Positions 2,575 to 54,117 of a stretch of 64,000 nucleotides of DNA are shown in pieces (the first letter of the stretch is position 1; every line of letters begins with the position of its first letter). The stretch covers positions 41,856 to 105,855 of the forward strand of contig JAHEDT010000006.1 in NCBI GenBank assembly GCA_024641085.1, written 5' to 3'. Under the pieces are notes generated by a model. The model was not told where the DNA came from and ran no database searches. It saw only the letters and a list, made by a program, of their open reading frames with translations. The position numbers and the translations under genes are program-made. The stretch is from Geobacteraceae bacterium (GTDB taxonomy: Bacteria; Desulfobacterota; Desulfuromonadia; Desulfuromonadales; BM103).

Positions 2575-3912
2575 ATGACACACGAGATCAAAGTCCCTGA
2601 AGTGTCGGACGGAGTGGCCGAGGGCACCGTCGTCGACATCGCTGTCTCGGTAGGAGCGTATGTCGAAGAAGACCAGACCCTTCTGGAGTTGGAGACCGAC
2701 AAGGCGGTCATCGCTATACCGTCGCCTTTTGCCGGCAAGATCACCGAGATCAAGGTCAAACAGGGTGAGAGTGTGCCGATCGGCGCAGTCATCATGCTGA
2801 TCGAAGCGGTCGGAGCTGCCGCTGCCGGTCCCGAACCGGTGGCGGAACCCGAAGCGCCCCGCCAGGCCGTGGCCGAACCCCAGGCAAAATCGGTACCGGA
2901 ACCGCCTGTCGACGCAGCTTCCTCGGCACCCGCAGCCGAGGTCGATGAGCCTGCTGTTGATTTGAGCGCAGTGCGACGCGGCGACCGGGTGGCCCCTGCG
3001 GCGCCATCGGTGCGTCGCCTGGCCCGTGATCTCGGTGTCGATATCTACCAGGTTCAGGGGCGCGGCCCGGGCGGCCGCATCAGCCAGACCGACGTGCGCA
3101 GTTTCGTCCGAGATACCATGCAACGTATCACCGGCGGTGGTTCGGCTCCGTTGGTGCATGGTGAGTTTCCCGGCCTGCATGCCCAGCGTCCGTTGCCGGA
3201 TTTCAGTCGCTGGGGGGAGGTGAGCCGCGAGCCGCTCTCCCGGGTCCGCGAACTGACCGCCGATAACATGAGCTACGCCTGGTCGACCATCCCCATGGTC
3301 ACCCAGTACGATCATGCCCGGGTGACCGAGATCGAAGCCTTCCGCAAGGAATTCAATACCAGGGCGATCAACGAAAGCCGTCTGACCATGACCGCAATCC
3401 TGGTCAAGGTCTGCGCCGCGGCCCTCAGGGCGTTCCCGCGCTTCAACAGCAGCCTCGACCTGGCGGCGAAGGAACTGGTCCTCAAACAGTACGTGCACAT
3501 CGGCGTTGCCGTCGACACCCCCGGTGGCCTGCTTGTCCCGGTGATCCGCGATGCCGATGCCAAGGGGATCGAACGCCTGGCCGTGGAGCTCAACGAAATT
3601 GCCGGCAAGACTCGCGACCGCAAGATCAGCCCTGCTGACATGGAGGGTGGGACCTTTACCATCAGCAACCTGGGCGGAGTCGGGGGCACCTCTTTCACGC
3701 CGATTGTCTATGCTCCCCAGGTGGCTATCCTGGGCATGTCTACCGCAAAGATGCAGCCGGTATGGAATGGCCAGGAATTCGCCCCGCAACTGGTCATGCC
3801 GCTCTCTTTAACCTACGATCACCGGGTCATCGACGGCGCCGATGGCGCCCGCTTCCTACGCTGGATCTGCATGGCCCTTGAGAACCCCCTGCACCTGGTC
3901 ATGAAAGGATAA
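2575..3912 (+). CDS. aceF: dihydrolipoamide acetyltransferase (E2) with one lipoyl domain
   Basis: Lipoyl motif LELETDKAVIAIPSP, Ala/Pro-rich linker, E3-binding segment PSVRRLARDLGVD, and catalytic motif LSLTYDHRVIDGADGARFL. RBS AAAGGA lies upstream of the ATG. Confidence 0.93.
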   Translation: MTHEIKVPEVSDGVAEGTVVDIAVSVGAYVEEDQTLLELETDKAVIAIPSPFAGKITEIKVKQGESVPIGAVIMLIEAVGAAAAGPEPVAEPEAPRQAVAEPQAKSVPEPPVDAASSAPAAEVDEPAVDLSAVRRGDRVAPAAPSVRRLARDLGVDIYQVQGRGPGGRISQTDVRSFVRDTMQRITGGGSAPLVHGEFPGLHAQRPLPDFSRWGEVSREPLSRVRELTADNMSYAWSTIPMVTQYDHARVTEIEAFRKEFNTRAINESRLTMTAILVKVCAAALRAFPRFNSSLDLAAKELVLKQYVHIGVAVDTPGGLLVPVIRDADAKGIERLAVELNEIAGKTRDRKISPADMEGGTFTISNLGGVGGTSFTPIVYAPQVAILGMSTAKMQPVWNGQEFAPQLVMPLSLTYDHRVIDGADGARFLRWICMALENPLHLVMKG

Positions 3913-5547: not shown

Positions 5548-6543
5548 ATGAACAAGAAAATCAATTGGCAGAATGCCCACCACTGGAGGTTGACGATCCA
5601 GTGGCTGTTCTTCGGCTGGTGTCTCTTCCTCGGCATCCAGTTTGGTCTGTTCGTGCGCCATTTCGAGACCCTGGGCCAAACCGGATATTATCCCCGGCCA
5701 CCTGGGGTTGAGGGCTTTCTCCCGATCGGCTCGCTGGTCAGTCTGAAAACCTGGCTTTTCACCGGACATTTCGACCCGGTGCACCCGGCGGCCCTGGTGC
5801 TGTTCTTGACCTTCCTGGCCATGGCGTTGCTGACCAAAAAATCTTTCTGCTCCTTCATCTGCCCGGTTGGAACCCTATCGGAAGGAGCCTGGAAGCTGGG
5901 TGGTCGCCTGTTCGGGCGCAACTTCCGCATCTGGCGCAGCCTCGATCTTTTCATGCAGTTCACCAAGTACGCACTGCTCTTCTTTTTCGTCAAGCTGATC
6001 CTCTTCGGTATGCCGGTTTTTGCACTCAGGGAATTTATCGCGGCGCCCTACTGGGCAATTGCCGATGTCAAGATGCTGCACTTCTTCACCGAAATGTCGA
6101 CCAGCAGCATGGTGGTGATTGCCGTTCTGGCGGTGCTTTCGGTCATTTATAAGAACTTCTGGTGTCGCTACCTCTGTCCCTACGGAGCGCTGCTCGGTCT
6201 GCTCAGTATGCTCAGCCTCTTCAAGGTGTCACGCAAGGCAGAGTGCTGCACCAGCTGCGGAGCCTGCAGCCGCGCCTGCCCGGCACAGATCGACGTTCAG
6301 AATAAACATTGCGTGCATTCACCGGAATGCACCGGCTGCCTGACCTGTGTCGGCAGCTGCCCGGAACAAGGCGCGCTGGCGATGGCTTTTCTCAAGCAGC
6401 CCTTGCCGGGGATCGTATTCGTGGTGATCGTGGTGATCCTGTTTGGAGGCGGCGTGCTGGCCGGTATGCTCGGCGGCCACTGGCAGTCGAGCCTGACCTA
6501 CGAAGATTACCAGCACCTGATCCCCCTGGCGCGGCAGTTGTGA
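5548..6543 (+). CDS. membrane-bound 4Fe-4S polyferredoxin (NapH/MauN/YccM-like)
   Basis: Several hydrophobic helices. Cys motifs CSFICPVG, CRYLCPYG, CTSCGACSRACP and CTGCLTCVGSCP are typical of the NapH-like family. Confidence 0.85.
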   Translation: MNKKINWQNAHHWRLTIQWLFFGWCLFLGIQFGLFVRHFETLGQTGYYPRPPGVEGFLPIGSLVSLKTWLFTGHFDPVHPAALVLFLTFLAMALLTKKSFCSFICPVGTLSEGAWKLGGRLFGRNFRIWRSLDLFMQFTKYALLFFFVKLILFGMPVFALREFIAAPYWAIADVKMLHFFTEMSTSSMVVIAVLAVLSVIYKNFWCRYLCPYGALLGLLSMLSLFKVSRKAECCTSCGACSRACPAQIDVQNKHCVHSPECTGCLTCVGSCPEQGALAMAFLKQPLPGIVFVVIVVILFGGGVLAGMLGGHWQSSLTYEDYQHLIPLARQL

Positions 6544-6712
6544 GATTCCTCTGACCCAACATCATGCCGGCAACCACCCGGTTTTCCAAAAAATGGAACA
6601 GAGCGTATCGGCTCTGTTCGCTTGCACTGTTGATCTCTTTGCATGTGAGAATATTGCATGTCTCGGAGATGCAATCCTTTCGATGTTTCCCGTTGCGCCG
6701 TCTATAAATCAC

Positions 6713-6743
6713 AAAAGCCCTCATCTACGGATTGGGGGCTTTT
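6713..6743. terminator. bidirectional rho-independent terminator-like hairpin
   Basis: AAAAGCCCTC / loop / GGGGGCTTTT. The stem runs 6717-6722 with 6734-6739 (one G-U), flanked by an A-run and a T-run. Confidence 0.55.
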
Positions 6744-6907
6744 CTCTCTGGAACAAAAAACAGAGGATCAAACCACGCGAGGTGGCTAGTGAGACGATTT
6801 TGAGTAGGCATTTCTAAAATATTTTGCTATGGATAACTGGTTCAGGATTGATTCTCCATACACAAGCGATGCCAAAAAAGGGTTCGACATCTGTCGAGGA
6901 GACCGGT

Positions 6908-7147
6908 ATGCCTGATCGCAGAGCCCTACGAAGACCAGGGCAGCAGCCTATAGATGTGATCACGAGAGATGGGACTTATCAACATCTGGCTCCTGCAGTC
7001 CTCGATATCCTGCTCGAAAAGAATCATGTCCTGAAGTTTAGGCGATCGAGTGGTTGGGTCACTGTTGGTATGGACCCTATTCGAGTCAAGGACAGACGTG
7101 AAGCCTCTCGCCTCTTTGACGGTCCCGACAGACGATCTGCCTACTGA
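6908..7147 (+). CDS. small conserved hypothetical protein (79 aa)
   Basis: GAGGAG RBS at 6896-6901, 6 nt before ATG 6908, inside track ORF 6824..7147. The motif KFRRSSGWVTVGMDPIR recalls a family of small proteins recurrent in Geobacter-type genomes (GSU3473-like, from memory, unverified). Confidence 0.5.
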   Translation: MPDRRALRRPGQQPIDVITRDGTYQHLAPAVLDILLEKNHVLKFRRSSGWVTVGMDPIRVKDRREASRLFDGPDRRSAY

Positions 7148-7310
7148 ATACTTTAGCGCCAGACGCGTGAGACGCATAATGTCCAGACTGTTTGTCTGTG
7201 CCAAAAATCTTGTCGCATGTCGGTGTGACTCAAAGAATTATTGGACAACTGTTAACGGTTTCTTGTCATGAGCGGGCCGTTTTGGTTTGTCATCATCTAC
7301 AAACACTAGC

Positions 7311-7343
7311 GCCCTCGACCTGCCGACCGGGGGCTATTTTTTT
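7311..7343 (+). terminator. rho-independent terminator
   Basis: GCCCTCG (7311-7317) pairs with CGGGGGC (7328-7334), followed by TATTTTTTT. Confidence 0.55.
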
Positions 7344-7393
7344 GTGTCGGTATTTAAAGGAAAAAAATGGTCTGATAGTTTACTGAGAATCAT

Positions 7394-7488
7394 AGCCAAG
7401 GCGCCTCAAGAGGACCTGCAGGTTTGCGCATCAGGACTGCTCGTAAATCACCTGATGACCACCCGCCATATGGTGGCCTTGGCTTTTT
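7394..7488 (+). ncRNA. candidate structured RNA / long terminator hairpin
   Basis: A 9-bp outer stem AGCCAAGGC (7394-7402) / GCCTTGGCT (7476-7484) encloses a 7-bp inner stem CATCAGG (7429-7435) / CCTGATG (7451-7457) and is followed by TTTTT. No ORF explains it. Confidence 0.25.
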
Positions 7489-7619
7489 CAAGTCTGTTGT
7501 AAATCAGTCCCCCGGTACTCATCCTATTGGACTTTTGACCCTCCTGCGTGTATATTTTGTACAAATTTGATGTAATTGGTTTTCTTATTGGTAAACGATG
7601 TAAAACGTGTGAGGAGCAT

Positions 7620-8135
7620 ATGGCTAAGCTATTGGTTTTGGTTTTAACGATGCTTTTATTTTTTTCAAGTACTTGTCTCGCGTATGTTAGAGACTATTCA
7701 GGGTTAGCAAATGCCTGGGAATCAGATGCAAACAAAGCATATATATCTGGGAAAACAACCTTCGAAGATGGAAAGGAAATAATTAACTTATTTGTAATTA
7801 GTTTCGAAAAAGAACACGAATGTAGTCCTGTTTTCAGGATTTCATTTCTAGAAGGAAATGAATATGGGGATTTATTGAAGACTATACCAGTTAAAGAAGG
7901 TTTTATTAGATTATATGTTGACAATAAAATATTATATGATGGCCCTGTTGTAAAAATTATCTACACAAATGTTACGGAATTCGGGGCTTCTATAACAGAA
8001 GAAATTTTAAGTAAAATATCTTCTGGAAATATTTTGACAATTGAAATAGTCGACATGATGGATATTAGGTTCAATTTAAACAAATCTAAGCAAAATATAG
8101 ACAAAGCGCGTGAAATCTGCATAAAAGAAAATTAA
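7620..8135 (+). CDS. orphan secreted hypothetical protein in very AT-rich DNA
   Basis: GAGGAG RBS at 7611-7616 precedes ATG 7620. Signal peptide MAKLLVLVLTMLLFFSSTCLA. Hand-counted G+C is 20/60 (7621-7680) and 16/60 (7861-7920), against 39/60 at nt 1-60. No recognisable domain. Confidence 0.7.
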   Translation: MAKLLVLVLTMLLFFSSTCLAYVRDYSGLANAWESDANKAYISGKTTFEDGKEIINLFVISFEKEHECSPVFRISFLEGNEYGDLLKTIPVKEGFIRLYVDNKILYDGPVVKIIYTNVTEFGASITEEILSKISSGNILTIEIVDMMDIRFNLNKSKQNIDKAREICIKEN

Positions 8136-8223
8136 TTTCTTGATTCTTGAAAATTATGACGTCTGAGATGAAAACCGGCTTATTTTTGATGGAGATTTTT
8201 GGGAGAATCTTTAATCCACAATA

Positions 8224-8253
8224 AACGGCCACCTGAAACGGGTGGCCGTTTTT
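8224..8253. terminator. rho-independent terminator between convergent genes
   Basis: 10-bp stem AACGGCCACC / GGTGGCCGTT with a 7-nt loop, followed by TTT. It overlaps the TAA stop of the minus-strand permease gene. Confidence 0.7.
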
Positions 8254-8758
8254 ATTGGTCAGAGTGACACATTAACCTCTCGACTATTAATCCGGTTGGA
8301 ATGGCAAATAACAGGGTAAGGCAAGAGCGCCCGAGAGAAAATGGCCAGCCCAGAAACCCTACTTCTAGTGGAATCATTGGGAGTTTGACTGCATAGGCCG
8401 CGAGCACAATAGTTACCACTGCCCAACGGGCTCCTTGCTGACGAATGGTCATCAGCAACGGAAAGATAATATATGGCGGACCGATTAACAGCGTTCCACA
8501 TACAACAGCGATTATCAAAGCTTTCGGTCCACTGTCATCGCCAAGTAACCTGGCTACGGCATCACGACTTATCCATACTTGCACCAGCCCTACCAGGCCC
8601 ATCACCGCGGCGATCAAGATGATGACTGATATCAGAATGGACCCTCCCGTTTTTAAGGCCTGCGACGCTCTTTCTGGACTTGCCCAGCCCGCCCAGAGGT
8701 AGAGTATCAACGTCATGCTGACCAGCCACTGAGATGTGAACCATCTTAGCATTGTCAT
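8252..8758 (-). CDS. half-size permease subunit (ArsP_1/DUF318-type predicted permease, C-terminal-like half)
   Basis: 168 aa and all-hydrophobic helices. It overlaps the upstream half-gene by 4 nt. No Cys pair. Confidence 0.7.
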   Translation of the reverse strand: MTMLRWFTSQWLVSMTLILYLWAGWASPERASQALKTGGSILISVIILIAAVMGLVGLVQVWISRDAVARLLGDDSGPKALIIAVVCGTLLIGPPYIIFPLLMTIRQQGARWAVVTIVLAAYAVKLPMIPLEVGFLGWPFSLGRSCLTLLFAIPTGLIVERLMCHSDQ

Positions 8759-9237
8759 ATGACGCCCCCGATCAGCAGGCCAATCAGTAGAGCCGAAATG
8801 AACGTGATGGCATTGCGCAATAGTGCGAAGCGCCAGCCAAACACATGTGCTTCAACAGGTAATGTCACCACTCCAACCGAAACCCATGAAACAATAAATG
8901 CTGCCGCTGCAGGTGGCCAGGCTCCTGAATCAATCAACGACCCTGCTATAGGGAATGCCGCGACGGGCGGACCGATTGCGATGGCACCAATCAAACCGCC
9001 ATTCAACAGAGAGAGAAAGCGGTTTTGTGATCCGAGCCAGGTGGAGATCAACTCAGGCGGCGCAAACTCCTGTAACAGGCCGATAAGAGCAAAGATTGAG
9101 AGTAAAAGAGGCGCCATACGATAGAGGGTCTGGCCGGCAACCTGTAGACTCTTGCGGCCTTTCTCGGCGTCTCTTTTAAAGCCAATCGTGTAGAGGACAG
9201 TAATGACTGCGAGGTAGATGAAGCCAGTTTTAATCAT
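8755..9237 (-). CDS. half-size permease subunit (ArsP_1/DUF318-type predicted permease, N-terminal-like half)
   Basis: 160 aa multi-TM protein. LLQEFAPPELISTWLG and GAIAIGPPVAAFPIAGSL resemble the predicted-permease family. Translationally coupled to 8252..8758. Confidence 0.7.
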   Translation of the reverse strand: MIKTGFIYLAVITVLYTIGFKRDAEKGRKSLQVAGQTLYRMAPLLLSIFALIGLLQEFAPPELISTWLGSQNRFLSLLNGGLIGAIAIGPPVAAFPIAGSLIDSGAWPPAAAAFIVSWVSVGVVTLPVEAHVFGWRFALLRNAITFISALLIGLLIGGVI

Positions 9238-9368
9238 ATTTCAACTCAGAGAAGCCGGATAACTTGTCAGCCGTTACATAGGCAATTATTGACGATCGTT
9301 GGAATGTAAAGATAAAGTAGAATTATAACTTGCTCATTCTGCATTAAGATAAGCGTGTTCTCAACATA

Positions 9369-9407
9369 TTAGTGACCCGAGCAGGTCTCATTCTTGAGTG
9401 TCACTAA
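9369..9407. promoter_or_regulatory. inverted repeat TTAGTGAC-N23-GTCACTAA upstream of the permease pair
   Basis: 8-bp perfect arms at 9369-9376 and 9400-9407, with a nested CTCA/TGAG hairpin. It lies about 130 nt upstream of start 9237 in AT-rich DNA. Confidence 0.3.
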
Positions 9408-9416
9408 ATTCCAGAT

Positions 9417-9454
9417 AAAAAGCCCTAATCGCGCCTTCCCGATTTAGGGCTTTT
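9417..9454. terminator. bidirectional terminator
   Basis: GCCCTAA (9422-9428) pairs with TTAGGGC (9444-9450), flanked by AAAAA and TTTT. It sits downstream of the minus-strand hemerythrin operon. Confidence 0.6.
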
Positions 9455-9605
9455 CGATAAGTATGACTGCAAGTTATTCTCAGGGGCCCGAGGGATTTTT
9501 GAGGTGCCAAAAATCAATACAGAATACTGACAGAGTTGTTGTGCTCTATGCCCCTTGTCCTTGTTCCGGTCGGACTAGAGCTGTCAAGAGCTTCCCTCCG
9601 AAGTG

Positions 9606-9890
9606 TTATCCTTCATCAATTTGTACGCCTTGCCCGGCGAACTGGATGTTGGCTGCATCGTCGCAGCGAGGCGGCGAGACGGCATGGAGCCCGCCGCACG
9701 CCGGGCACTTGCCGACGAAGGTGGTCAGGGTGAAGCCGGCGCCGCATCCCTGGCAGGCTGTCGACAGTCCGCTGCCTGGCAGCATCTGGTTGCGCAACGC
9801 CCCACCATGTGCCTGAAAAACAAACTCAACCAGTTCCCTGCCTTCTGCAAAAGGACCTGCACTGCTGCCATGATTTGAACAACAACCCAT
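9606..9890 (-). CDS. small Cys-rich zinc-ribbon-like protein (94 aa)
   Basis: AAGGAG RBS 6 nt before ATG 9890. Motifs CQGCGAGF...GKCPACGG plus N-terminal MGCCSNH. Last gene of the operon. Confidence 0.6.
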   Translation of the reverse strand: MGCCSNHGSSAGPFAEGRELVEFVFQAHGGALRNQMLPGSGLSTACQGCGAGFTLTTFVGKCPACGGLHAVSPPRCDDAANIQFAGQGVQIDEG

Positions 9891-9957
9891 TTAATTCTCC
9901 TTTTATGTATGACTGCCGGTGGCGAAAAAGCGACTTAGGTCTTTCAGATGGTTCCGG

Positions 9958-10512
9958 TCATTTGTTGACCTGCTCCTCGTGCCCTTCGACCATCTTGCGA
10001 TATTTGTCTTCGAGCCCGGGGGTTCGTTCCTCGGCTACTTGGTATCCCGCCAGCATGTCGTCGCGAACCTCCTCAGGAAGAACCCGTTCCGCCAGTGGGT
10101 AGAGGATGTCGTCCTCCTTGGCAATGTGCCCGCGCAGCAGGGCAGCATAACCCCTGGCGTGTTCGATAATGATAGCGGTCTGGCCGGTTTCCGCGTCGAG
10201 GGCTTTCTGGGCGGCATCTTCCAACGCGCGGACGTGTGCGCGCCCCTGGTCGTGCTCCATATGCATGGCCTCGATCGGTGACTGTTTTTCCGGCATGCCG
10301 TTCTTGATCAACGCAGTGAACAGTACGTCCTCTTCCTTGGCATGGTGGAAGCGATCGGCATAGTTGCGGATGAAATCCACCGCATCCAGGTAAAACTGCC
10401 AGTTGCGGAACCTGCCCTTTTCGAGCAGGGCAGTATTGTGTTCCACCAGGGCAATCATCCGCAGGATCAACTGGTGCTCGTCAACCATCACCTGGGTCAC
10501 GTTGGTCTTCAT
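9958..10512 (-). CDS. hemerythrin-like (HHE cation-binding) domain protein
   Basis: Start chosen at MKTNVTQ (ATG 10512), 1 nt after the upstream TGA. His/Glu motifs DEHQLILRMI, RFHHAKEEDVLF, HMEHDQGR and HIAKEDDILYP are typical of hemerythrin-like proteins. Confidence 0.8.
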   Translation of the reverse strand: MKTNVTQVMVDEHQLILRMIALVEHNTALLEKGRFRNWQFYLDAVDFIRNYADRFHHAKEEDVLFTALIKNGMPEKQSPIEAMHMEHDQGRAHVRALEDAAQKALDAETGQTAIIIEHARGYAALLRGHIAKEDDILYPLAERVLPEEVRDDMLAGYQVAEERTPGLEDKYRKMVEGHEEQVNK

Positions 10513-19620: not shown

Positions 19621-19872
19621 GATTAGCCTTTTCGATAATGATACCGGCTCGTTCCGCTAAGGCAACCATGACATTTCGATGCGCCCAAAGCCAGGAGATT
19701 CTTCAGAGTTATGCAGAGTGCCAGCGCAGGCGTCCCTTGGTGTGCTCGCAAAAATCACACTCTGGGCATTTTTTATAACCTGCCTGCCCGTTGTGATTGA
19801 TGCCGCCGGCCGATTCAAGTACACTCAGCCATGCAATTGACCTGCAGTTAAATACGTTGGGGAGTGAGGATC

Positions 19873-20526
19873 ATGATTCTCGGTTTTGCCGGCAAGGCGG
19901 CGACAGGAAAAACCACGGCAGCAAAGCATATGGCACCTCTGCTTGATAAGGAGTGCAGGATCGTGCCGATGGCGATGGTGCTGCGCGACGAGGTCGAGGC
20001 TTTTTTGCGGGCGATTGGCGCTGATGAGTCGGTGCCCCTGGTTTACGGATGTCAGGATGACAAGGTGCGGGTCTTTTACGTCGATGAAGAGAATGCCCTG
20101 GGCCGGTGCCCTCAGTGGGCGCATTTTGTCGATGAGAACCGGGAGATTCAGGATCGTCCCGGGCAAACGGCGGTCACCGTGCGGCGTATCCTGCAGTGGT
20201 GGGGAACGGAGTACCGTCGCGCCCAGGATCCGGACTACTGGACCAAGGCCTGGGGGCGCAAGGTCGAGCAGTTCGATCTTGCCCGTTTGCATGTCCTCGT
20301 CGATGACGTGCGCTTCATTAACGAGTTGAACGTCATCAAGGAGCACGGTGGGCTGATCGTCAAGATCGAACGTCCGGGCTTCGACGGTGCGAACAATCAT
20401 GCCAGCGAGACCTCCCTGGATGAATACCAGGCATGGCACAGGGTCGTGGTCAACAACGGCACGCTCGACGCATTCAAGGCGCAGGTCGAACAACTCGCCG
20501 TCGAGTTGATGCAGCGGCGCGGCTGA
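19873..20526 (+). CDS. P-loop dNMP-kinase-like protein (phage-type deoxynucleoside monophosphate kinase family)
   Basis: Start preferred at ATG 19873 (GGAG..GAGG upstream). Walker A GFAGKAATGKTT, plus WWGTEYRR, DDVRFINE and HASE motifs as in T5-type dNMP kinases (from memory). Confidence 0.65.
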   Translation: MILGFAGKAATGKTTAAKHMAPLLDKECRIVPMAMVLRDEVEAFLRAIGADESVPLVYGCQDDKVRVFYVDEENALGRCPQWAHFVDENREIQDRPGQTAVTVRRILQWWGTEYRRAQDPDYWTKAWGRKVEQFDLARLHVLVDDVRFINELNVIKEHGGLIVKIERPGFDGANNHASETSLDEYQAWHRVVVNNGTLDAFKAQVEQLAVELMQRRG

Positions 20527-34265: not shown

Positions 34266-35495
34266 TCACGAAGCCGGAGCCGCATCTGCCGTGGCAAGTA
34301 CGTGGCTGGCATCCTGCTCCCTGATCGGCCAGTGCAGCCAGGCGGCCACAAGTCCCAACACCAAACCGGTCAGCCATATGCCGAGGTACGACCCGAACCG
34401 GGCGTACAGGTACCCACCCAACCAGACTCCACAGAAGCTGCCGATCTGATGACTCAGGAAGACCACCCCGTACAGAAAGGCCATGTACCGGGTCCCGAAC
34501 ATGACGGCGACCAGTCCGGTCGTCGGCGGCACGGTCGCCAGCCATAAGAAACCCATAACGGCACTGAAGATGAGAATGCTGGCCAGTGAGACCGGCATCA
34601 CCAGAAACAGGGCGATGGCCACTGCCCTGCCGAGGTAAATGCAGGACAGGATATAGGCCTTGGAGCGGCGGCCGCTCTGCACCCCGGAAATGTAGGCGCC
34701 GACGACATTGCACAGGCCGATCAGGCCGATGCTCCAGGCCCCGATCCTGGCGTCGAAGCCGAGGTCGACCACATACCCCGGCATATGCACGGTGATGAAG
34801 GCAACATGGAATCCGCAGACGAAGAAGCCGAGCACCAACAGGGTGTAGGAAGGGACGCGGAACGCACGTCTCAGGATCGTAGCCAGAGGCAGCTTGAGGT
34901 CGGCGGCGCTGCTCTCCGCTGCGCCGCTGTAAGGTGCGAGGGGCAAAGCCAGCACAGCCATCAGGAGCGCCGACAGGCTCATCCACTGCAGAGCCTCGAA
35001 CCAGCCCAGCCATTCAACGGCCTGCTGCATGAACGGCACGATGAGGAACTGGCCGAAACTGCCGGCCGATGTGCCGAGCCCGAGTGCCCATCCTCGCCTG
35101 TCGGGCGGTACGGCCCGGGCCAGCGCGGGCAGGACAATGCCGAAGGAGGTGCCCGCAATCCCCGCCCCGAGCAGGATCCCTGCCATTGCGATCATGCCGG
35201 CCTCAGTGCTGGCGTAGGCCATGCCGAGCATGCCGGCGGCATAGCAGAGAACCCCCACCAGCAGCACCATCAGATTGCCGTAACGGTCCGCCAACCCGCC
35301 AGCGAACACGGCGATAATCCCCCAGGACAGGTTCTGGATCGCCAGGGCCATGGACATGACATCGCGGCCCCAGCCGTGGCTCTCCGAGATTGGCTTGAGA
35401 AAGAGGCCGAACCCGGCTCGGTAGCCGAAGGAGAGCATCAGCAACACGCATGCGCTGATCAGCAGGGGGGCGACAGGAGCTAGTCTTGCTTTCAT
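34266..35495 (-). CDS. MFS transporter
   Basis: Start at MKARLAPVAPLL (ATG 35495). 12 predicted TM helices. GGLADRYG-type loop motif. Confidence 0.85.
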   Translation of the reverse strand: MKARLAPVAPLLISACVLLMLSFGYRAGFGLFLKPISESHGWGRDVMSMALAIQNLSWGIIAVFAGGLADRYGNLMVLLVGVLCYAAGMLGMAYASTEAGMIAMAGILLGAGIAGTSFGIVLPALARAVPPDRRGWALGLGTSAGSFGQFLIVPFMQQAVEWLGWFEALQWMSLSALLMAVLALPLAPYSGAAESSAADLKLPLATILRRAFRVPSYTLLVLGFFVCGFHVAFITVHMPGYVVDLGFDARIGAWSIGLIGLCNVVGAYISGVQSGRRSKAYILSCIYLGRAVAIALFLVMPVSLASILIFSAVMGFLWLATVPPTTGLVAVMFGTRYMAFLYGVVFLSHQIGSFCGVWLGGYLYARFGSYLGIWLTGLVLGLVAAWLHWPIREQDASHVLATADAAPAS

Positions 35496-35736
35496 GGTGA
35501 TCTCTCTGCTCAGGAAGTGGTCCAAGACGCTAGCAGCAGAGCGACTGGATGACAACTGAAATCTGGCATTTCCCCTCGCCGCGTCGGATGCCGGATCTGG
35601 TCCGCAAACAAAAATATACGGTTGCCCCCTGATGCCAGAGCAATTCGGTTTTCATGGATGGTCTGTTATGCGCCCCAGATTAGAATAGCTGGTAAGCATG
35701 GCGTGGGGCAATCTCAGTCCCATGTTTGATAAAGTG

Positions 35737-35764: not shown

Positions 35765-35819
35765 GGCCATGCTGGCTAGGGCTCAGGAAACAAATACCAA
35801 CCTTAAAGGAGGTGCTGTC

Positions 35820-36437
35820 ATGAGTGATTGTTGCGAAACTTATCTCAAATTGGGTCACCAGGTCCCAGATTTTGAGATTGATACTTACGATCCAACTGTG
35901 AAAAATTTCGGTAAGATAAGCCTTGAGGGGCAAAAAAAAGCGGGCAAATGGACCATCCTGTTCTTCTATCCCGCTGACTTCACGTTTGTCTGAGCGACGG
36001 AATTTGCTGCTCTGTCAGAGCAGTACGCGCGCTTCAGTAAAATGGGTGCTGAAGTTGTTACCGTCAGCACCGATACGCAATATGTACACCTGGCGTGGCA
36101 GCGCCATGAAAAAGAACTTGCCAACGTGAAATACCCCATGGGAGCAGACCCGACCGGGAACTTGTCCCGCATGTTCGGCGTGTATGATGACTCTTCCGGC
36201 CTGGCTCTAAGGGGTACCTTCATCATTAATCCCTCAGGAATATTGATGAATTCCGAAATCAACTTTTACAACATGGGCCGGAATATCGACGAGTTGATGC
36301 GTAAATTCAAAGCGAACCTCTACCTGGCGAAAAAGAAGGATGAAGGCTGTCCGTCGAAATGGCAGGAGGAGGGAGACCAGACCCTCAAGCCTTCTCCCGA
36401 GATGGTCGGCAGGGTCCACGAAGCGTTGAACGAGTAG
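35820..36437 (+). CDS. 2-Cys peroxiredoxin (AhpC/Prx1 type) with selenocysteine (TGA 35991-35993) at the peroxidatic position
   Basis: AGGAGG at 35807-35812, 7 nt before ATG 35820. Track ORFs 35769..35993 and 36042..36437 are in the same frame. Read-through gives FFYPADFTFV-U-ATEFAALSEQY (canonical FYPxDFTFVCPTE), then RGTFIINP and the resolving-Cys motif DEGCPSKW. Confidence 0.85.
36006..36024 (+). promoter_or_regulatory. SECIS-like hairpin
   Basis: It starts 12 nt after the UGA. Stem G-U plus CUGCUC/GAGCAG, apical loop UGUCA containing GU. Confidence 0.55.
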
Positions 36438-36491: not shown

Positions 36492-36524
36492 AATGGCCTG
36501 TCCTTTCTGGATAGGCCATTTTTT
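36492..36524 (+). terminator. rho-independent terminator of the peroxiredoxin gene
   Basis: AATGGCCT / AGGCCATT stem, then a T-run to 36524. Confidence 0.8.
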
Positions 36525-36689: not shown

Positions 36690-38009
36690 CTACTGTTCCC
36701 GTCCCTTTGGCAGGATCAGGTTGAGCAGAACGCCGATGACCCCGGCCAGGCCAATGCCGCCAAGTTTGACCACCGCCAGATCGAAACTCATGCCGCCGAT
36801 ACCGAATACCAGGATGACGGCGACGATCGTCAGGTTGCGCGGCTGCATCAGATCGGTGCCTGCCCTGACCAGGGTGTTGATGCCGATGACGGCGATCGCG
36901 CCGAACAGCAGCACCATGATGCCACCCATGACCGGCACCGGAATGGTATTGAGAAATCCGCCCAGTTTGCCAACAAAGGCCAGCAGGACCGCTGTGATGG
37001 CCGCCCAGGTCATGATGAACGGGTTAAAGGAGCGGGTCAGAGCCACAGCCCCAGAGACCTCGGAATAGGTGGTGTTGGGCGGGCCGCCGAGGCAGGCGGC
37101 CAGGCTGGTGGCGAGGCCGTCGCCGAGCAGGGTTTTGTGGATGCCCGGATCATCGACGTAGTCTTTGCCGGTGATGCTGCCGATGGCCAGAATGTCGCCG
37201 AAATGTTCGATGGCCGGTGCGATCGCGACCGGCACGATGAAAAGGATGGCCTCGAGGTTCCAAACGGGCAGGGTGAATTCTGGCATGGCCAGCCACGGGG
37301 CGTCGAAGACCTTTTGCATCGAGATCAGGGTTGGTCCAGTCCAGTTCTGCAGCGTGCCGGGGTCGAACGTGGCCTGGATCGAAGCTGAGATCCCCGCCGC
37401 GTCAAGAAAAAAGGAGGCGAGATAGCCGGCGGCGATGCCGCAGAGGATCGGAATCAGCCGGAACATGCCTTTACCGAGCAGTGAGACCAGAACAGTGACG
37501 ACCAGGGCCGTTCCGGCGATGATGAAAGCCGTGGTTTGCGGAACCAGCCATGCGGCACCGTCACCGGTGCGCCCAGAAGCCATGTGCACCGCGACCGGAG
37601 CCAGGACCAGGCCGATGACCATAATGACCGGTCCAGTGACAATCGGCGGCAGGACCCGGTGCAATATATCGGAGCCGAAAATACGGATGGCAATGCTGGC
37701 TATGACGTAAAAGAGGCCCGCGGCAGCCAGGCCGCACATGGTGCCTGGGATGCCCCACTGCTGAACACCGTAGATGATCGGTGCGATGAAGGCGAAACTC
37801 GAGGCCAGGAAAACCGGAACTTTGCCGCGGGTGATGATTTGGAAGAGCAGGGTGCCGGCACCCGCTGTGAAGAGTGCGACGTTGGCATTGAGACCGGTCA
37901 ACAAGGGGACCAGGACCAGGGCGCCGAAGGCGACAAAGAGCATTTGCGCCCCGATGAGCATCTGTTTCGGGCTGAAGCTAAAGCGATTCTCCTGAGAGTT
38001 ACCAGACAT
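36690..38009 (-). CDS. uraA: uracil/xanthine permease (NCS2 family)
   Basis: Start ATG 38009 with an AGGAGG RBS. NCS2-type 14-TM protein. It sits downstream of upp, as in the E. coli upp-uraA operon. Confidence 0.85.
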   Translation of the reverse strand: MSGNSQENRFSFSPKQMLIGAQMLFVAFGALVLVPLLTGLNANVALFTAGAGTLLFQIITRGKVPVFLASSFAFIAPIIYGVQQWGIPGTMCGLAAAGLFYVIASIAIRIFGSDILHRVLPPIVTGPVIMVIGLVLAPVAVHMASGRTGDGAAWLVPQTTAFIIAGTALVVTVLVSLLGKGMFRLIPILCGIAAGYLASFFLDAAGISASIQATFDPGTLQNWTGPTLISMQKVFDAPWLAMPEFTLPVWNLEAILFIVPVAIAPAIEHFGDILAIGSITGKDYVDDPGIHKTLLGDGLATSLAACLGGPPNTTYSEVSGAVALTRSFNPFIMTWAAITAVLLAFVGKLGGFLNTIPVPVMGGIMVLLFGAIAVIGINTLVRAGTDLMQPRNLTIVAVILVFGIGGMSFDLAVVKLGGIGLAGVIGVLLNLILPKGREQ

Positions 38010-38206
38010 TGAATGACCTCCTGAAAATATTTTTGTAGCCGTCACCTAAAAGGATTGACAGGCAATAAACGTTTCCCAACACGTGGCTGCAGCAGCGCCA
38101 GAAAAAAAGCAAGCATCATGCGGGGACCGCACCATTAATTTACGTTCGCGGTTACCGCGTTCAACATCATTGAGTCGTTTTGGCCGTTGAGGGTTGGCCT
38201 GTCGAA

Positions 38207-46094: not shown

Positions 46095-47105
46095 ATGCTC
46101 AACTTTTTTCTCAAACGCATCGGTGTCGTCATCCCGACGTTCATCGGTGTGACTCTGCTGACCTTCTCCCTGATCCGGCTGATTCCCGGCGACCCGGTGG
46201 AGCTGATGGCTGGCGAACGCGGGATCGACCCGGCACGCCACGCCCAGCTGCTGGCCGAGATGGGGCTCGACAAACCGCTTCTGGTGCAGTACTGGAATTA
46301 TCTGGTCGGCATTTTTCATGGTGACATGGGAACCTCTCTGGTGACCCGAGAACCGGTGGTGAAGGAATTCTTCACACTTTTTCCGGCGACCCTCGAACTG
46401 GGGCTCTGCGCCATTATCATTGCTGTCCTGATCGGTCTTCCGGCCGGAATCATCGCCGCAGTGCGGCGCGGCAAGGTGACTGATTACACGGTGATGGGGA
46501 TGTCCCTGACCGGTTACTCGATGCCGATTTTCTGGTGGGGCCTGCTGCTGATCCTGCTCTTCTCCGTGAGACTTGGCTGGACTCCGGTCTCCGGGCGCAT
46601 TTCAGAGATGTTCTGGGTCGACGAGGTCACCGGCTCCATGCTGGTTGACGCCTTCCTCTCCGACGAAAAAGGCGCCCTGCTTTCCACTCTGCATCATCTG
46701 ATCCTGCCGGCCATCGTGCTTGCGACCATCCCATTGGCGGTGATTGCGCGCATGACCCGTTCGGCCATGCTTGAAGTCCTGCGCGAGGACTATGTGCTGG
46801 TGGCGCGCGCCAAGGGGCTGGCGATGCCATTGGTGATCTGTGTGCACGCCCTGCGCAATGCCCTGATCCCGGTGATTACCGTCATCGGCCTCCAGGTCGG
46901 GGTGCTGATGGCCGGGGCAATCCTCACCGAAACGATCTTTTCCTGGCCCGGGATCGGCAAGTGGTTGCTGGACTCGATTCGTCGTCGCGACTACCCTTCG
47001 GTACAGGGAGGGATTCTACTGGTCTCCTGCCTGGTGATCCTGGTCAACCTGACAGTTGACCTCTTTTACGGCGTGGTCAACCCGCGCATTCGCCACAACC
47101 GTTGA
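46095..47105 (+). CDS. dppB: peptide ABC transporter permease
   Basis: N-terminal MLNFFLKRIGVVIPTFIGVTLLTF and an EAA-loop region, 336 aa. Confidence 0.9.
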   Translation: MLNFFLKRIGVVIPTFIGVTLLTFSLIRLIPGDPVELMAGERGIDPARHAQLLAEMGLDKPLLVQYWNYLVGIFHGDMGTSLVTREPVVKEFFTLFPATLELGLCAIIIAVLIGLPAGIIAAVRRGKVTDYTVMGMSLTGYSMPIFWWGLLLILLFSVRLGWTPVSGRISEMFWVDEVTGSMLVDAFLSDEKGALLSTLHHLILPAIVLATIPLAVIARMTRSAMLEVLREDYVLVARAKGLAMPLVICVHALRNALIPVITVIGLQVGVLMAGAILTETIFSWPGIGKWLLDSIRRRDYPSVQGGILLVSCLVILVNLTVDLFYGVVNPRIRHNR

Positions 47106-51013: not shown

Positions 51014-52819
51014 ATGAGCAAGGGATATAAAGGCAAAGTATTGCGTGTTGATTTGTCGTCCGGCACCTGCAAGACCGAGGCCCTCAATGCAGAGTGGGCC
51101 AAGTCCTATCTCGGCGGACGCGGCCTGGCTTCCAAATACCTGACCGAGGAGATTTCGCCCGACGTCGATCCGATGAGCCCGAAGAACAAGCTGATCATGG
51201 CAACCGGGCCCCTGACCGGAACCTATGGTGCGGCCAACGGCCGCTACATGGTCGTGACCAAGTCGCCGCTTACCGGCACTATTGCCAGCTCCAACTCCGG
51301 CGGCTACTTCCCCAGCGAGCTGCGGTATGCCGGTTTCGACATGATCATCTTCGAAGGCAAGGCGGCCCGGCCGGTCTATCTGCAGATTCACAACGACCGT
51401 GCCGAACTGGTCGGTGCCATTCATCTCTGGGGCAAGTCGACCAATGAAACGGAAGACGCGATCCGCAACGAGTTCCACGGCGATGCCAAGGTGGCCTGCA
51501 TCGGACCTGCCGGAGAAAACGGCGTGTTTTACGCCAACATCATGAACGACAAACACCGTGCCGCCGGCCGCAGCGGCGTCGGTATGGTCATGGGCAGCAA
51601 GAACCTCAAAGCGGTCGCCGTGCGCGGCACCGGCGGAGTCCGGGTCGCCGACCCCAAGGCTTACCGGGATGCCGCGCTCGAATCCTACGGCCTGCTCAAG
51701 GAAAACCCGGTCACCGGTGAGGGGCTGGGGGCCCTGGGGACTGCAGTGCTGGTCAATGTTATCAACCAGAGTGGGGCTCTGCCGACCCGCAACGCCCAGA
51801 CCGGGACCTTTGAAGGGGCGGAGAAGATCTCCGGCGAAACCCTGGCCGCGACCTACCTGAAGCGCAACAAGAGCTGCATGGGGTGCATCATCGGCTGTGG
51901 CCGCGTCACCAAGCTGTCCGACGCCAAATACTCCGGCGATGGTGAGGGCCCCGAGTATGAATCGCTCTGGGCCCTCGGCGCCGCCTGCGGGGTCTCCGAT
52001 CTGGCTGCGATTACCAAGGCCAACTACATCTGCAACGAGTACGGCATGGACACCATCACCGCCGGCTCAACGGTCGGCTGTGCCATGGAACTCTACCAGA
52101 GAGGCCTGATCAGCGAAAAGGAAGCCGGCATGCCCCTGGAGTTTGGCAACGGCGAGGCCCTGGTCAAGCTGATGGAGTTGACCGGCAAGGGCGAGGGCTT
52201 CGGCAAGAAGATAGCACTCGGTTCCTACCGACTGGCCGAGAGCTACGGCATGCCCGAACTGTCGATGACCTCCAAGAAGCTGGAATTCCCTGCCTACGAC
52301 CCGCGCGGCATTCAGGGGATGGGCTTGGAGTATGCGACCAGCAACCGCGGTGCCTGCCATGTGCGTGGCTACCTGATCTCGCCGGAAATCCTCGGTATTC
52401 CTGAAAAACTTGACCCGCACGTGACCGAGGGCAAGGCGACCTGGCTGAAGATCTTCCAGGACTTCACCGCGGTGGTCGATTCGGCCGGCGTCTGCCTGTT
52501 CACCACCTTCGGCATCGGCGTGCCGCAGTTTGTCAAATTCTGCAACGCGGCGAACGGCACCAGCCTGAGTGACGAGGATCTGCTTGCGGCCGGCGACCGG
52601 ATCTACAACCTCGAGCGGATGTTCAACCTCAAGGCGGGTATCGACCCGTCCCAGGACACCCTGCCGAAGCGCATCCTCGAAGAGCCCCTGCCGGACGGCC
52701 CGGTCAAGGGCGATGTCTGCAGACTGTCGCAGATGCTTCCGGAATACTACAAGGAGCGCGGCTGGAGCGCCAAAGGGGTCCCGACTGAAGCGAAGCTGCA
52801 GTCCCTCGGGCTGGCTTAG
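51014..52819 (+). CDS. aorB: tungsten-type aldehyde:ferredoxin oxidoreductase catalytic subunit
   Basis: N-terminal [12 protein letters not shown]...YLGGRGL and the AOR family sequence through 601 aa. Confidence 0.92.
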
Positions 52820-52840
52820 TTCACACAGGCTCCTGAACAG

Positions 52841-52878
52841 GAGAGGGGCCCGCATTTGTGCGGGCTCCTCTCTGTTTT
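52841..52878 (+). terminator. 14-bp hairpin plus T-run between aorB and aorC
   Basis: GAGAGGGGCCCGCA / TGCGGGCTCCTCTC (one G-U), loop TTTG, then TGTTTT. Confidence 0.7.
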
Positions 52879-52893
52879 GAAAAGAGGTGGCGC

Positions 52894-54117
52894 ATGGCAG
52901 AGACTTACGAATACGTCGTGATCGGCAACAGTGCGGCGGGGCTGCAGGCACTGCGTACCCTGCGCAGGCATGACCGGCAGGCCTCCGTGGCGATCATCGA
53001 CCGGGAAGACCATCCGGCCTATTCCCGGGTATTGACCCCATATTACGTCGGCGGCAAGACCGGCCGGGACAACCTGTTCATCGTCGATCGTGACTACTAC
53101 CGACGCGAGCATATCACCACCCTGTTCGGCCGCAACGTCGTTGCCCTCGATGCCGATGGCCACCGGTTGGAACTGGACGACGGCCAACAGGTCGCTTTCG
53201 GCAAACTGCTGCTGGCGATCGGGGCCGAGGCACGTAACCTGGCCATCACTTCAGCGCGGGCCTGCACCTTGCGACACATGGCCGATGCCGAAAAGCTCGA
53301 AGCTCTGATGCAGAATGCCAGCAGCATCACGGCGATCGGCGCCGGCCTGGTCAGCCTGCCCCTGCTCTCGCATGCGCCGGAGTCCGCCGAGAAACACCTG
53401 GTGGTCGGATCCAACCGGATCTTCAGCCGGGTGGTGGACGCGGAAGCCTCGGCCATTCTCGAGGAGATGTTCCGTGGGAGCGGTCTGCAGTTGCACAAGC
53501 AGGACGACATCGTGACCATCGACGAAGGCGAAAGGCTGCAACTCACCCTGGCCTCCGGTGGCCATCTGGTGACTGACATGCTGATCATCGGCAAGGGGGT
53601 TGAACCGAACATCTGGCTGGCCCGCGCGGCCGGCCTTCGAGTGCACGACGGCATCCTGATCGATGACTACTGCTGTACCAGCCACGCCGACATCTACGCC
53701 GCCGGCGATGCCGCGGAATGCAAAGATTTCGTGACCGGCGAACCGACCATCCAGGGGAACTGGATGACCGCTGTCGAGCAGGGGGAGAATGCTGCCCTCA
53801 ACATGCTGGGAATGACCTGTGCCTACGAGGGAAGCCTGAAAAACAACATCACCGAGGTGTTCGGTGTCGACATCGCCGCCATCGGCTACTGTCAGGATGA
53901 TGCGTCCCAGACTGCCAGCACCTTCGATGCTGCTACCGGCCGCTACCGCAAGATCTTCCTCAACGAACGGCGCCGGGTGATCGGGGCAACCCTGATCGGT
54001 GAAACCAACGATGCGGGGCTCTACTACCACTGGGTTCGCACCCGCCACACCTTCCCCGGCGAGCAGGCGCTGCACCGAACCAATACTTACGCGAGCTTCC
54101 TCAAGGGGCTGGCATAG
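52894..54117 (+). CDS. aorC: FAD/NAD(P)-dependent pyridine nucleotide-disulfide oxidoreductase (AorC-like)
   Basis: Start at MAETYEYVVIGNSAAG (ATG 52894). A second dinucleotide fold and the motif IYAAGDAAE. Confidence 0.85.
   Translation: MAETYEYVVIGNSAAGLQALRTLRRHDRQASVAIIDREDHPAYSRVLTPYYVGGKTGRDNLFIVDRDYYRREHITTLFGRNVVALDADGHRLELDDGQQVAFGKLLLAIGAEARNLAITSARACTLRHMADAEKLEALMQNASSITAIGAGLVSLPLLSHAPESAEKHLVVGSNRIFSRVVDAEASAILEEMFRGSGLQLHKQDDIVTIDEGERLQLTLASGGHLVTDMLIIGKGVEPNIWLARAAGLRVHDGILIDDYCCTSHADIYAAGDAAECKDFVTGEPTIQGNWMTAVEQGENAALNMLGMTCAYEGSLKNNITEVFGVDIAAIGYCQDDASQTASTFDAATGRYRKIFLNERRRVIGATLIGETNDAGLYYHWVRTRHTFPGEQALHRTNTYASFLKGLA

Follow-up and report, generated by a model that had tools for sequence, protein, structure and literature searches.

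A probable selenocysteine-containing 2-Cys peroxiredoxin read as two open reading frames in a Geobacteraceae contig

Peroxiredoxins that carry selenocysteine (Sec, U) at the peroxidatic position are an established group of bacterial selenoproteins. A 2026 review lists the TxxU peroxiredoxin family (PF00578), with WP_011365628.1 as its example, as a prokaryotic selenoprotein family that has experimental support (PMC13188914), and a census from 2006 counted 12 members of the Prx family, including those of Geobacter metallireducens, Syntrophus, Syntrophobacter and Anaeromyxobacter (PMC1794560). For Prx, this census recorded only events in which Cys was converted to Sec (PMC1794560 Table 1). Another described member of this kind is PrxU of Eubacterium acidaminophilum (Sohling et al., 2001, as cited in PMC13188914). 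Here, a stretch of 64,000 nucleotides of contig JAHEDT010000006.1 from a Geobacteraceae bacterium, referred to as the window, is analyzed. On the basis of comparative sequence data, its positions 35820-36437 very probably constitute a gene for a 2-Cys peroxiredoxin that contains Sec, encoded by a UGA at the peroxidatic position that is followed directly by a bacterial selenocysteine insertion sequence (SECIS). The published TxxU family shares with this gene the PF00578 domain, the motif PxxxTxxU (PMC13188914), the Sec at the peroxidatic position and the SECIS directly downstream, and it occurs in anaerobic delta-proteobacteria including G. metallireducens (PMC1794560 Tables 1, 3). Compared by description, the published family is broad, as it comprises any Prx with T/SxxU, whereas the gene of the window belongs to one sharp subfamily that is marked by FTFV-U-ATEFAAL[A/S]EQ and a near-invariant 18-nucleotide (nt) SECIS. 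The gene is thus a previously unannotated TxxU Prx and nothing new in kind, such proteins being known since 2001-2006. The first-pass annotation of this DNA had already remarked that Sec peroxiredoxins are known, and the TxxU Prx family is indeed long established (PMC1794560, PMC1088965, PMC13188914). A literature search on Sec peroxiredoxins together with AhpC and Geobacter returned no paper.

The open reading frames (ORFs) 35769..35993 and 36042..36437 lie in a common frame, and the sole stop codon between them is the TGA at 35991-35993. Read through from ATG 35820, the sequence gives 205 codons with one internal stop and closes with TAG at 36435-36437. The translation runs through WTILFFYPADFTFV, the TGA and ATEFAALSEQYARFSKMGAEV, with LRGTFIINP and DEGCPSKW further on, and its active-site stretch reads FFYPADFTFV-U-ATEF. 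This single-frame translation agrees with the proposal of the first-pass annotation that the two split ORFs form one AhpC/Prx1-type protein of 205 amino acids (aa) in which the downstream hallmarks RGTFIINP and DEGCPSKW are intact.

Profile searches were run with Cys substituted for the internal stop. The AhpC-TSA domain (PF00578) was found at residues 12-142 with 119.2 bits, against a cut-off of 26 (E = 1.3e-34), and the closest solved structures are those of AhpC, 5y63 and 1we0 (E ~1e-46). A homologue search covering 5.8 billion proteins gave thousands of matches, the best full-length ones being 62-73% identical to the window protein. In an alignment of 20 sequences, i.e., the window protein and 19 homologues, the residue opposite the TGA is Cys in 17 of the 19, with a single Arg and a single Trp, so that the TGA does stand where the family has its peroxidatic Cys, as had been claimed. 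The invariant columns include P51, T55, R131, C177, P178 and W181, and the region of C177 matches VCPANW of AhpC 5y63. With an AhpC-TSA domain, PxxxTxxC(U) together with the Arg, and a resolving Cys in the C-terminal arm, the protein is classified by domain and motifs as a typical 2-Cys peroxiredoxin of the AhpC/Prx1 type, for which peroxidase activity is predicted. The Ala that follows the Sec had been pointed out as unusual, a view that does not hold within the subfamily, in which this Ala is invariant, Cys forms (FTFVCATEF) included.

Directly downstream of the UGA lies a hairpin (36006-36024) built of a G-U pair and a CUGCUC/GAGCAG stem with the loop UGUCA, which can close to a 3-nt GUC loop. 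The spacer between UGA and hairpin measures 11-12 nt. The structure had been described in the same form by the first-pass annotation, and it is recovered by both folding programs that were used. In RNAfold it is part of the structure with the lowest energy (-22.7 kcal/mol and z = -2.5 for a fold of 61 nt), while RNAalifold, applied to 30 orthologues, yields an 8-base-pair (bp) helix of alignment columns 16-23 with 27-34, corresponding to window positions 36006-36013 with 36017-36024. Over these 8 bp, 98.3% of the cells are paired. An invariant G opens the loop, which reads GUC within the delta-proteobacterial clade and GGC outside it. A small G-containing apical loop directly downstream of the UGA is a common feature of bacterial SECIS elements (PMC1088965).

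The support for this RNA structure comes mainly from constraint on synonymous sites. In a codon alignment of 34 distinct Sec-form genes, the codons +5 to +10 (GCU GCU CUG KCA GAG CAG) have a synonymous entropy of 0-0.5 bit with a mean of 0.10, as compared to a mean of 1.31 bits for the other conserved codons of the gene (n = 103). Codon use at these six positions is nearly uniform (GCT 31/34, GCT 34/34, CTG 34/34, GCA 24/25, GAG 34/34 and CAG 33/33), and, when gap-dominated tail columns are left out, the hairpin is the 6-codon window with the lowest entropy in the gene (0.117 vs. a median of 1.27). As a control, 26 metagenomic Cys-form genes were used that encode exactly FTFVCATEFAALAEQ, which contains the peptide AALAEQ. 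Here, the same six codons show 1.75, 1.59, 1.40, 1.37, 0.62 and 0.62 bits, and the hairpin sequence is absent from most of these genes. Because Cys forms with the same peptide use their codons freely, the constraint on the hairpin acts at the RNA level and is tied to the TGA. A stem-loop with a small G-containing loop directly downstream, constrained as RNA and linked to the UGA, is what is expected of a selenoprotein gene; the low entropy and the invariant loop G likewise agree with the earlier suggestion that the hairpin fits a bacterial SECIS.

The TGA itself is conserved. A scan for orthologues, in which each GTDB species was represented by a single genome, gave 39 loci, and TGA is found at the aligned codon in all 34 distinct Sec-form orthologous sequences, which mostly come from separate species. 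By record title they belong to delta-proteobacteria, Geobacteraceae, Desulfuromonadales, Geothermobacteraceae, Planctomycetota, Holophagae/Acidobacteriota, Gemmatimonadota and Nitrospirota; their protein identity to the window goes as low as ~62%, and none of them has another stop or a frameshift. The C-terminal fragment of 131 aa belongs to a cluster that has 39 members at 90% identity, and 15 out of 15 among the members listed are 131 aa long, so the split recurs in close relatives. Selection was examined with Nei-Gojobori proportions of nonsynonymous (pN) and synonymous (pS) differences between the window and ten closer relatives (identity of at least 81%). For the 57 codons upstream of the TGA, pN is 0.06-0.18 and pS 0.38-0.85; for the 147 codons downstream, these values are 0.02-0.08 and 0.47-0.81, respectively. 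As an example, pN/pS in the comparison with the locus L009 is 0.064/0.71 in the N-terminal and 0.038/0.49 in the C-terminal part. With a pN/pS of roughly 0.05-0.25 on either side of the TGA, both halves of the gene are under strong purifying selection. The UGA is thus kept opposite the Cys of homologues in a conserved region whose two sides are both selected, which is likewise expected of a selenoprotein gene.

A number of observations weigh against Sec insertion at this UGA. Firstly, one lineage, represented by L001:6502-7098 (JGI 3300021511, Ga0190284_1000357), has CGA (Arg) in place of the TGA. Its 18-nt SECIS is intact, the first ~25 residues are missing in all three frames, and the four members of its 90% cluster come from different samples. 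This copy is probably either in decay or repurposed. Secondly, scans with ARAGORN, Rfam and Pfam detected no selA, selB, selD or tRNA-Sec in the 64-kb window. The Pfam scans covered 30 window ORFs, among them all but one of those of at least 300 aa (the one left over is annotated as ApbA in L003), and no SelA, SelB or SelD domain was seen in these 30; tRNAs were likewise absent from 37 related loci. Sec machinery would be expected elsewhere in the host genome from its taxonomy, because Geobacter and Desulfuromonas species are listed as Sec users (PMC1794560 Table 3). Thirdly, a scan of the window for single in-frame TGAs flanked by coding sequence with high G+C at third codon positions (GC3) gave no other selenoprotein candidate, its signals being a normal boundary between genes at 47103 and otherwise noise from other frames. 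Fourthly, covariation in the hairpin is thin because the stem hardly varies: five pairs are invariant and there is one compensatory pair change (U-A to G-U in L044), besides three compatible changes, including two from U-A to U-G, and an alternation of G-C and G-U at the base; the observed values are attained in 18-45 of 500 shuffles. Lastly, Rfam gave no SECIS match, neither in the whole window at the gathering threshold nor in 35950-36100 at a permissive E-value, although it was not checked whether Rfam holds a suitable model. The weak matches that did appear, mir-7637, HrrF and HIV-1 SL4 (E = 2-10), are chance hits.

Three other explanations, which jointly retain only a small part of our confidence, have been considered. 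The first is that a Cys codon (TGY) mutated to TGA in a gene that is dead or dying, which would account for the two ORFs reported by gene callers and would be in line with the Arg-containing, N-terminally incomplete L001 and with the lack of visible Sec machinery in the window. A decaying gene is not compatible with the low pN/pS values upstream and downstream of the TGA, and 34 distinct orthologues from several phyla share this very TGA in an otherwise uninterrupted frame, accompanied by a synonymously constrained hairpin that most Cys forms lack. Disruptions in close relatives, named at the outset as a sign of decay, are confined to the L001 lineage. The comparative data therefore essentially refute the pseudogene, and we consider it very improbable.

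Slightly less probable still is that translation ends at the UGA, giving an N-terminal peptide of 57 aa and a separate protein of 131 aa that starts at ATG 36042. Automatic annotation calls both fragments, and in Sec decoding generally some termination at the UGA competes with insertion. The second product would have to be initiated at an ATG that is not preceded by a Shine–Dalgarno sequence, and the 16 codons between the TGA and this ATG, which should not be conserved if there were two genes, keep the frame and encode a conserved amino acid sequence (pN 0-0.03 vs. closest relatives). Moreover, the thioredoxin fold and the active site would be incomplete in both fragments, and the catalytic residue would be lost although P51, T55, R131 and C177 are all invariant.

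The last explanation, equally improbable, is selenium-free read-through by a near-cognate tRNA (Trp, Cys, Arg) or under a reassigned code, with the hairpin acting as a mere stimulator, as downstream hairpins can do in other systems; it could draw on the Trp at the site in five database orthologues, but these entries are most simply gene-caller artefacts (code 4 or 25), catalysis would be abolished by Trp or Arg in place of the peroxidatic residue, the hairpin with its position and small G-containing loop is of the bacterial SECIS type, the family is documented as a selenoprotein family, and ordinary genes of the window end in TGA more often than in any other stop codon (18 of 37 long ORFs), which implies that the organism uses the standard code and does not read TGA as sense in general, so that this code and the catalytic need for Sec or Cys make such read-through unlikely. 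The five proteins in question are P0010, P0011, P0021, P0034 and P0041, and the simplest explanation is that they are further hidden Sec forms in which TGA was translated with one of these codes.

For the Sec-containing 2-Cys peroxiredoxin, a working mechanism can be proposed from what is established on Sec decoding in bacteria and on enzymes of the 2-Cys type. During translation, the hairpin located 11-12 nt past the UGA would serve as the SECIS. A complex of SelB, GTP and Sec-tRNA(Sec) would bind its small G-containing apical loop and bring Sec to the ribosomal A site, where the UGA stands, after which the ribosome would continue to the TAG at 36435-36437. In the mature enzyme, P51, T55 and R131 are predicted to position the selenolate of U58, which would attack the peroxide and be converted to a selenenic acid. 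This acid would then be resolved by C177 of the partner subunit to a selenenylsulfide, from which a thiol reductant would regenerate the enzyme. Since the gene has no ahpF neighbour, this reductant is most likely thioredoxin.

The described protein closest in structure and sequence is AhpC (TIGR03137; 5y63, 1we0, 1yep). AhpC and the window protein have in common the typical 2-Cys layout, the C-terminal resolving Cys in xCPxxW and the same Pro, Thr and Arg. They differ in that AhpC has the motif C-P-T-E-L, whereas the window protein has U-A-T-E-F and lacks an ahpF neighbour. An AhpC equivalog, dependent on AhpF, was rejected on account of this missing neighbour and of a score of 193.5 bits with TIGR03137, against an equivalog cut-off of 272. 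PrxU (NF040737, thioredoxin-dependent) is also a Sec protein of the AhpC/Prx1 type; its profile aligns with residues 7-202 (E = 2e-52), and thioredoxin is the likely reductant for both proteins. The host of PrxU belongs to the Firmicutes, while that of the window is Desulfuromonadales-like. At 178.2 bits the window protein stays below the equivalog cut-off of 270 for NF040737, so it was rejected as a PrxU orthologue, although it may well work like PrxU. As both scores fall below their cut-offs, the protein is an AhpC/Prx1-type enzyme that is an orthologue of neither AhpC nor PrxU, and it belongs to a separate subfamily.

The hairpin can be compared with known bacterial SECIS elements (E. coli fdhF, consensus models), which are likewise coding-region hairpins with a small loop and a conserved G. 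In E. coli fdhF, an 11-nt spacing rule applies and G and U of the loop contact SelB; the spacer of 11-12 nt in the window would match this rule. The loop contains GU in the window hairpin and GG in most other phyla. Unlike the bacterial SECIS models, the window hairpin has a stem of 8-9 bp without an evident bulged U, and a loop of only 3-5 nt.

The signals around the reading frame are in accordance with a single monocistronic gene at 35820-36437 (Table 1). No Shine–Dalgarno sequence could be read at the upstream in-frame ATG 35769 or at the internal ATG 36042. The terminator, which was not listed by a simple consensus scanner, was confirmed by direct folding (-26.6 kcal/mol, z = -4.5, equaled by none of 200 shuffles). 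Sequence and folding thus support the earlier statement that a strong ribosome binding site and a terminator flank the full gene.

Table 1. Coordinates, within the window, of the peroxiredoxin gene and its predicted elements.
Feature	Position	Strand	Details
Shine–Dalgarno sequence AGGAGG	35807..35812	+	7 nt before ATG 35820, read directly
Predicted Sec-containing 2-Cys peroxiredoxin, full-length coding sequence	35820..36437	+	205 aa + TAG stop
Active-site motif PxxxTxxU (P51, T55, U58)	35970..35993	+	P51, T55 and flanking residues invariant
UGA codon, predicted Sec (U58), peroxidatic residue	35991..35993	+	Opposite the peroxidatic Cys of homologues
Putative SECIS hairpin	36005..36025	+	Core G36006-U36024 to U36013-A36017; loop G-U-C 36014-36016; optional U36005-A36025
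Active-site Arg codon (R131, LRGTF)	36210..36212	+	Invariant column
Resolving Cys codon TGT (C177, E-x-C-P-x-x-W)	36348..36350	+	Invariant 20/20
Intrinsic terminator	36492..36524	+	12-bp stem, 5-nt loop, U-run

Upstream, the gene is flanked by a divergent major facilitator superfamily (MFS) transporter gene (34266-35555, minus strand) and downstream by a convergent xanthine/uracil permease gene (Xan_ur; 36690-38045, minus strand), which is followed by uracil phosphoribosyltransferase. The Pfam scan of the window ORFs showed no ahpF adjoining the peroxiredoxin gene. The MFS transporter and the permease are shared as neighbours only with contigs whose flanking genes are 100% identical (L003-L008) and which probably represent the same organism; a conserved operon was rejected on this ground.

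In public data, the gene is mis-annotated. The gene calls of NCBI, JGI and Logan either split it into fragments of 57 aa and 131 aa or read the UGA as Trp, in agreement with the earlier remark that gene callers typically truncate such genes. As a result of this mis-annotation, peroxide defence and selenium dependence are under-counted in genomes of Desulfuromonadales-like bacteria, Planctomycetota, Acidobacteriota, Gemmatimonadota and Nitrospirota. The selenoprotein family has been known for ~20 years, and the present result is mainly an annotation correction. It adds that the near-invariant 18-nt SECIS of a sharply defined subfamily could serve as a simple search pattern, that the Cys-form control separates constraint at the RNA level from that at the protein level, and that there are hints of recent replacements of Sec by Cys and by Arg.

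The replacements by Cys are suggested by two Cys forms that have TGT at the site. L063:781-825 carries a perfect 18-nt hairpin and L071:7073-7117 a hairpin with one mismatch, whereas at least two mismatches to it are present in each of the 24 further Cys forms that encode this peptide. L063 and L071 have the appearance of genes in which Sec was recently converted to Cys and the SECIS stayed as a fossil. In a neighbour-joining tree without support values, built from the window and L009-L073, the FTFV[C/U]ATEF subfamily shows its Sec and Cys forms interleaved. Moreover, the peptide AALAEQ, which is found throughout the subfamily, is the exact translation of the SECIS hairpin. It is conceivable, and proposed here tentatively, that the FTFV[C/U]ATEFAALAEQ subfamily had a Sec-containing ancestor and that AALAEQ is the protein imprint of the SECIS hairpin GCUGCUCUGGCAGAGCAG. 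If so, Sec would have been converted to Cys repeatedly, as opposed to the Cys-to-Sec events that are the only ones in the 2006 census (PMC1794560). Alternatively, the peptide may be 'SECIS-ready' and Sec may have been gained convergently from Cys forms, a step that needs only a change from TGY to TGA and a few synonymous changes. In either direction, a near-invariant 18-nt SECIS across several phyla would represent an unusually clean system in which to study co-constraint between SelB and SECIS.

Two further observations concern members of the family. In the metagenome-assembled genome of a planctomycete (Planctomycetota, JBFWRP010000026.1; L024:4005), a Sec form with its TGA at 3166 is followed ~840 bp downstream by a Cys paralogue with TGC and no hairpin, so that Sec and Cys peroxiredoxins stand in tandem. 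The window protein itself has an N-terminal Cys-Cys (35826-35834, residues 3-5, D-C-C), of a kind that is common in Cys-form homologues (xCCG, CCCC). The N-terminal MSDCC was rejected as an extra redox site, since close Sec orthologues have MSDCQ, MNDYN and MSESG at this place.

The remaining genes of the window are ordinary housekeeping and transport genes. They encode pyruvate dehydrogenase E1/E2/E3, ribonucleotide reductase, a DegP-like protease, a P-type ATPase, an Opp-type ABC transporter, aldehyde:ferredoxin oxidoreductase and an AsmA/YhdP-like protein. A 101-nt 'tRNA-Pro (cgg)' called by ARAGORN at 20192-20292, with the anticodon at position 40, is probably false; it lies inside ORF 19864-20526 and was not reported by Rfam. 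At 51014-54117, an aldehyde:ferredoxin oxidoreductase of the tungsten type (AFOR_N/AFOR_C) is followed by a Pyr_redox_2/Rubredoxin_C reductase, a pair that fits an anaerobic lifestyle of the host. Finally, the region 6001-10000 has a G+C content of 0.475-0.484, compared to ~0.59 elsewhere, and contains short ORFs with a GC3 of 0.26-0.54; it may be an acquired island.

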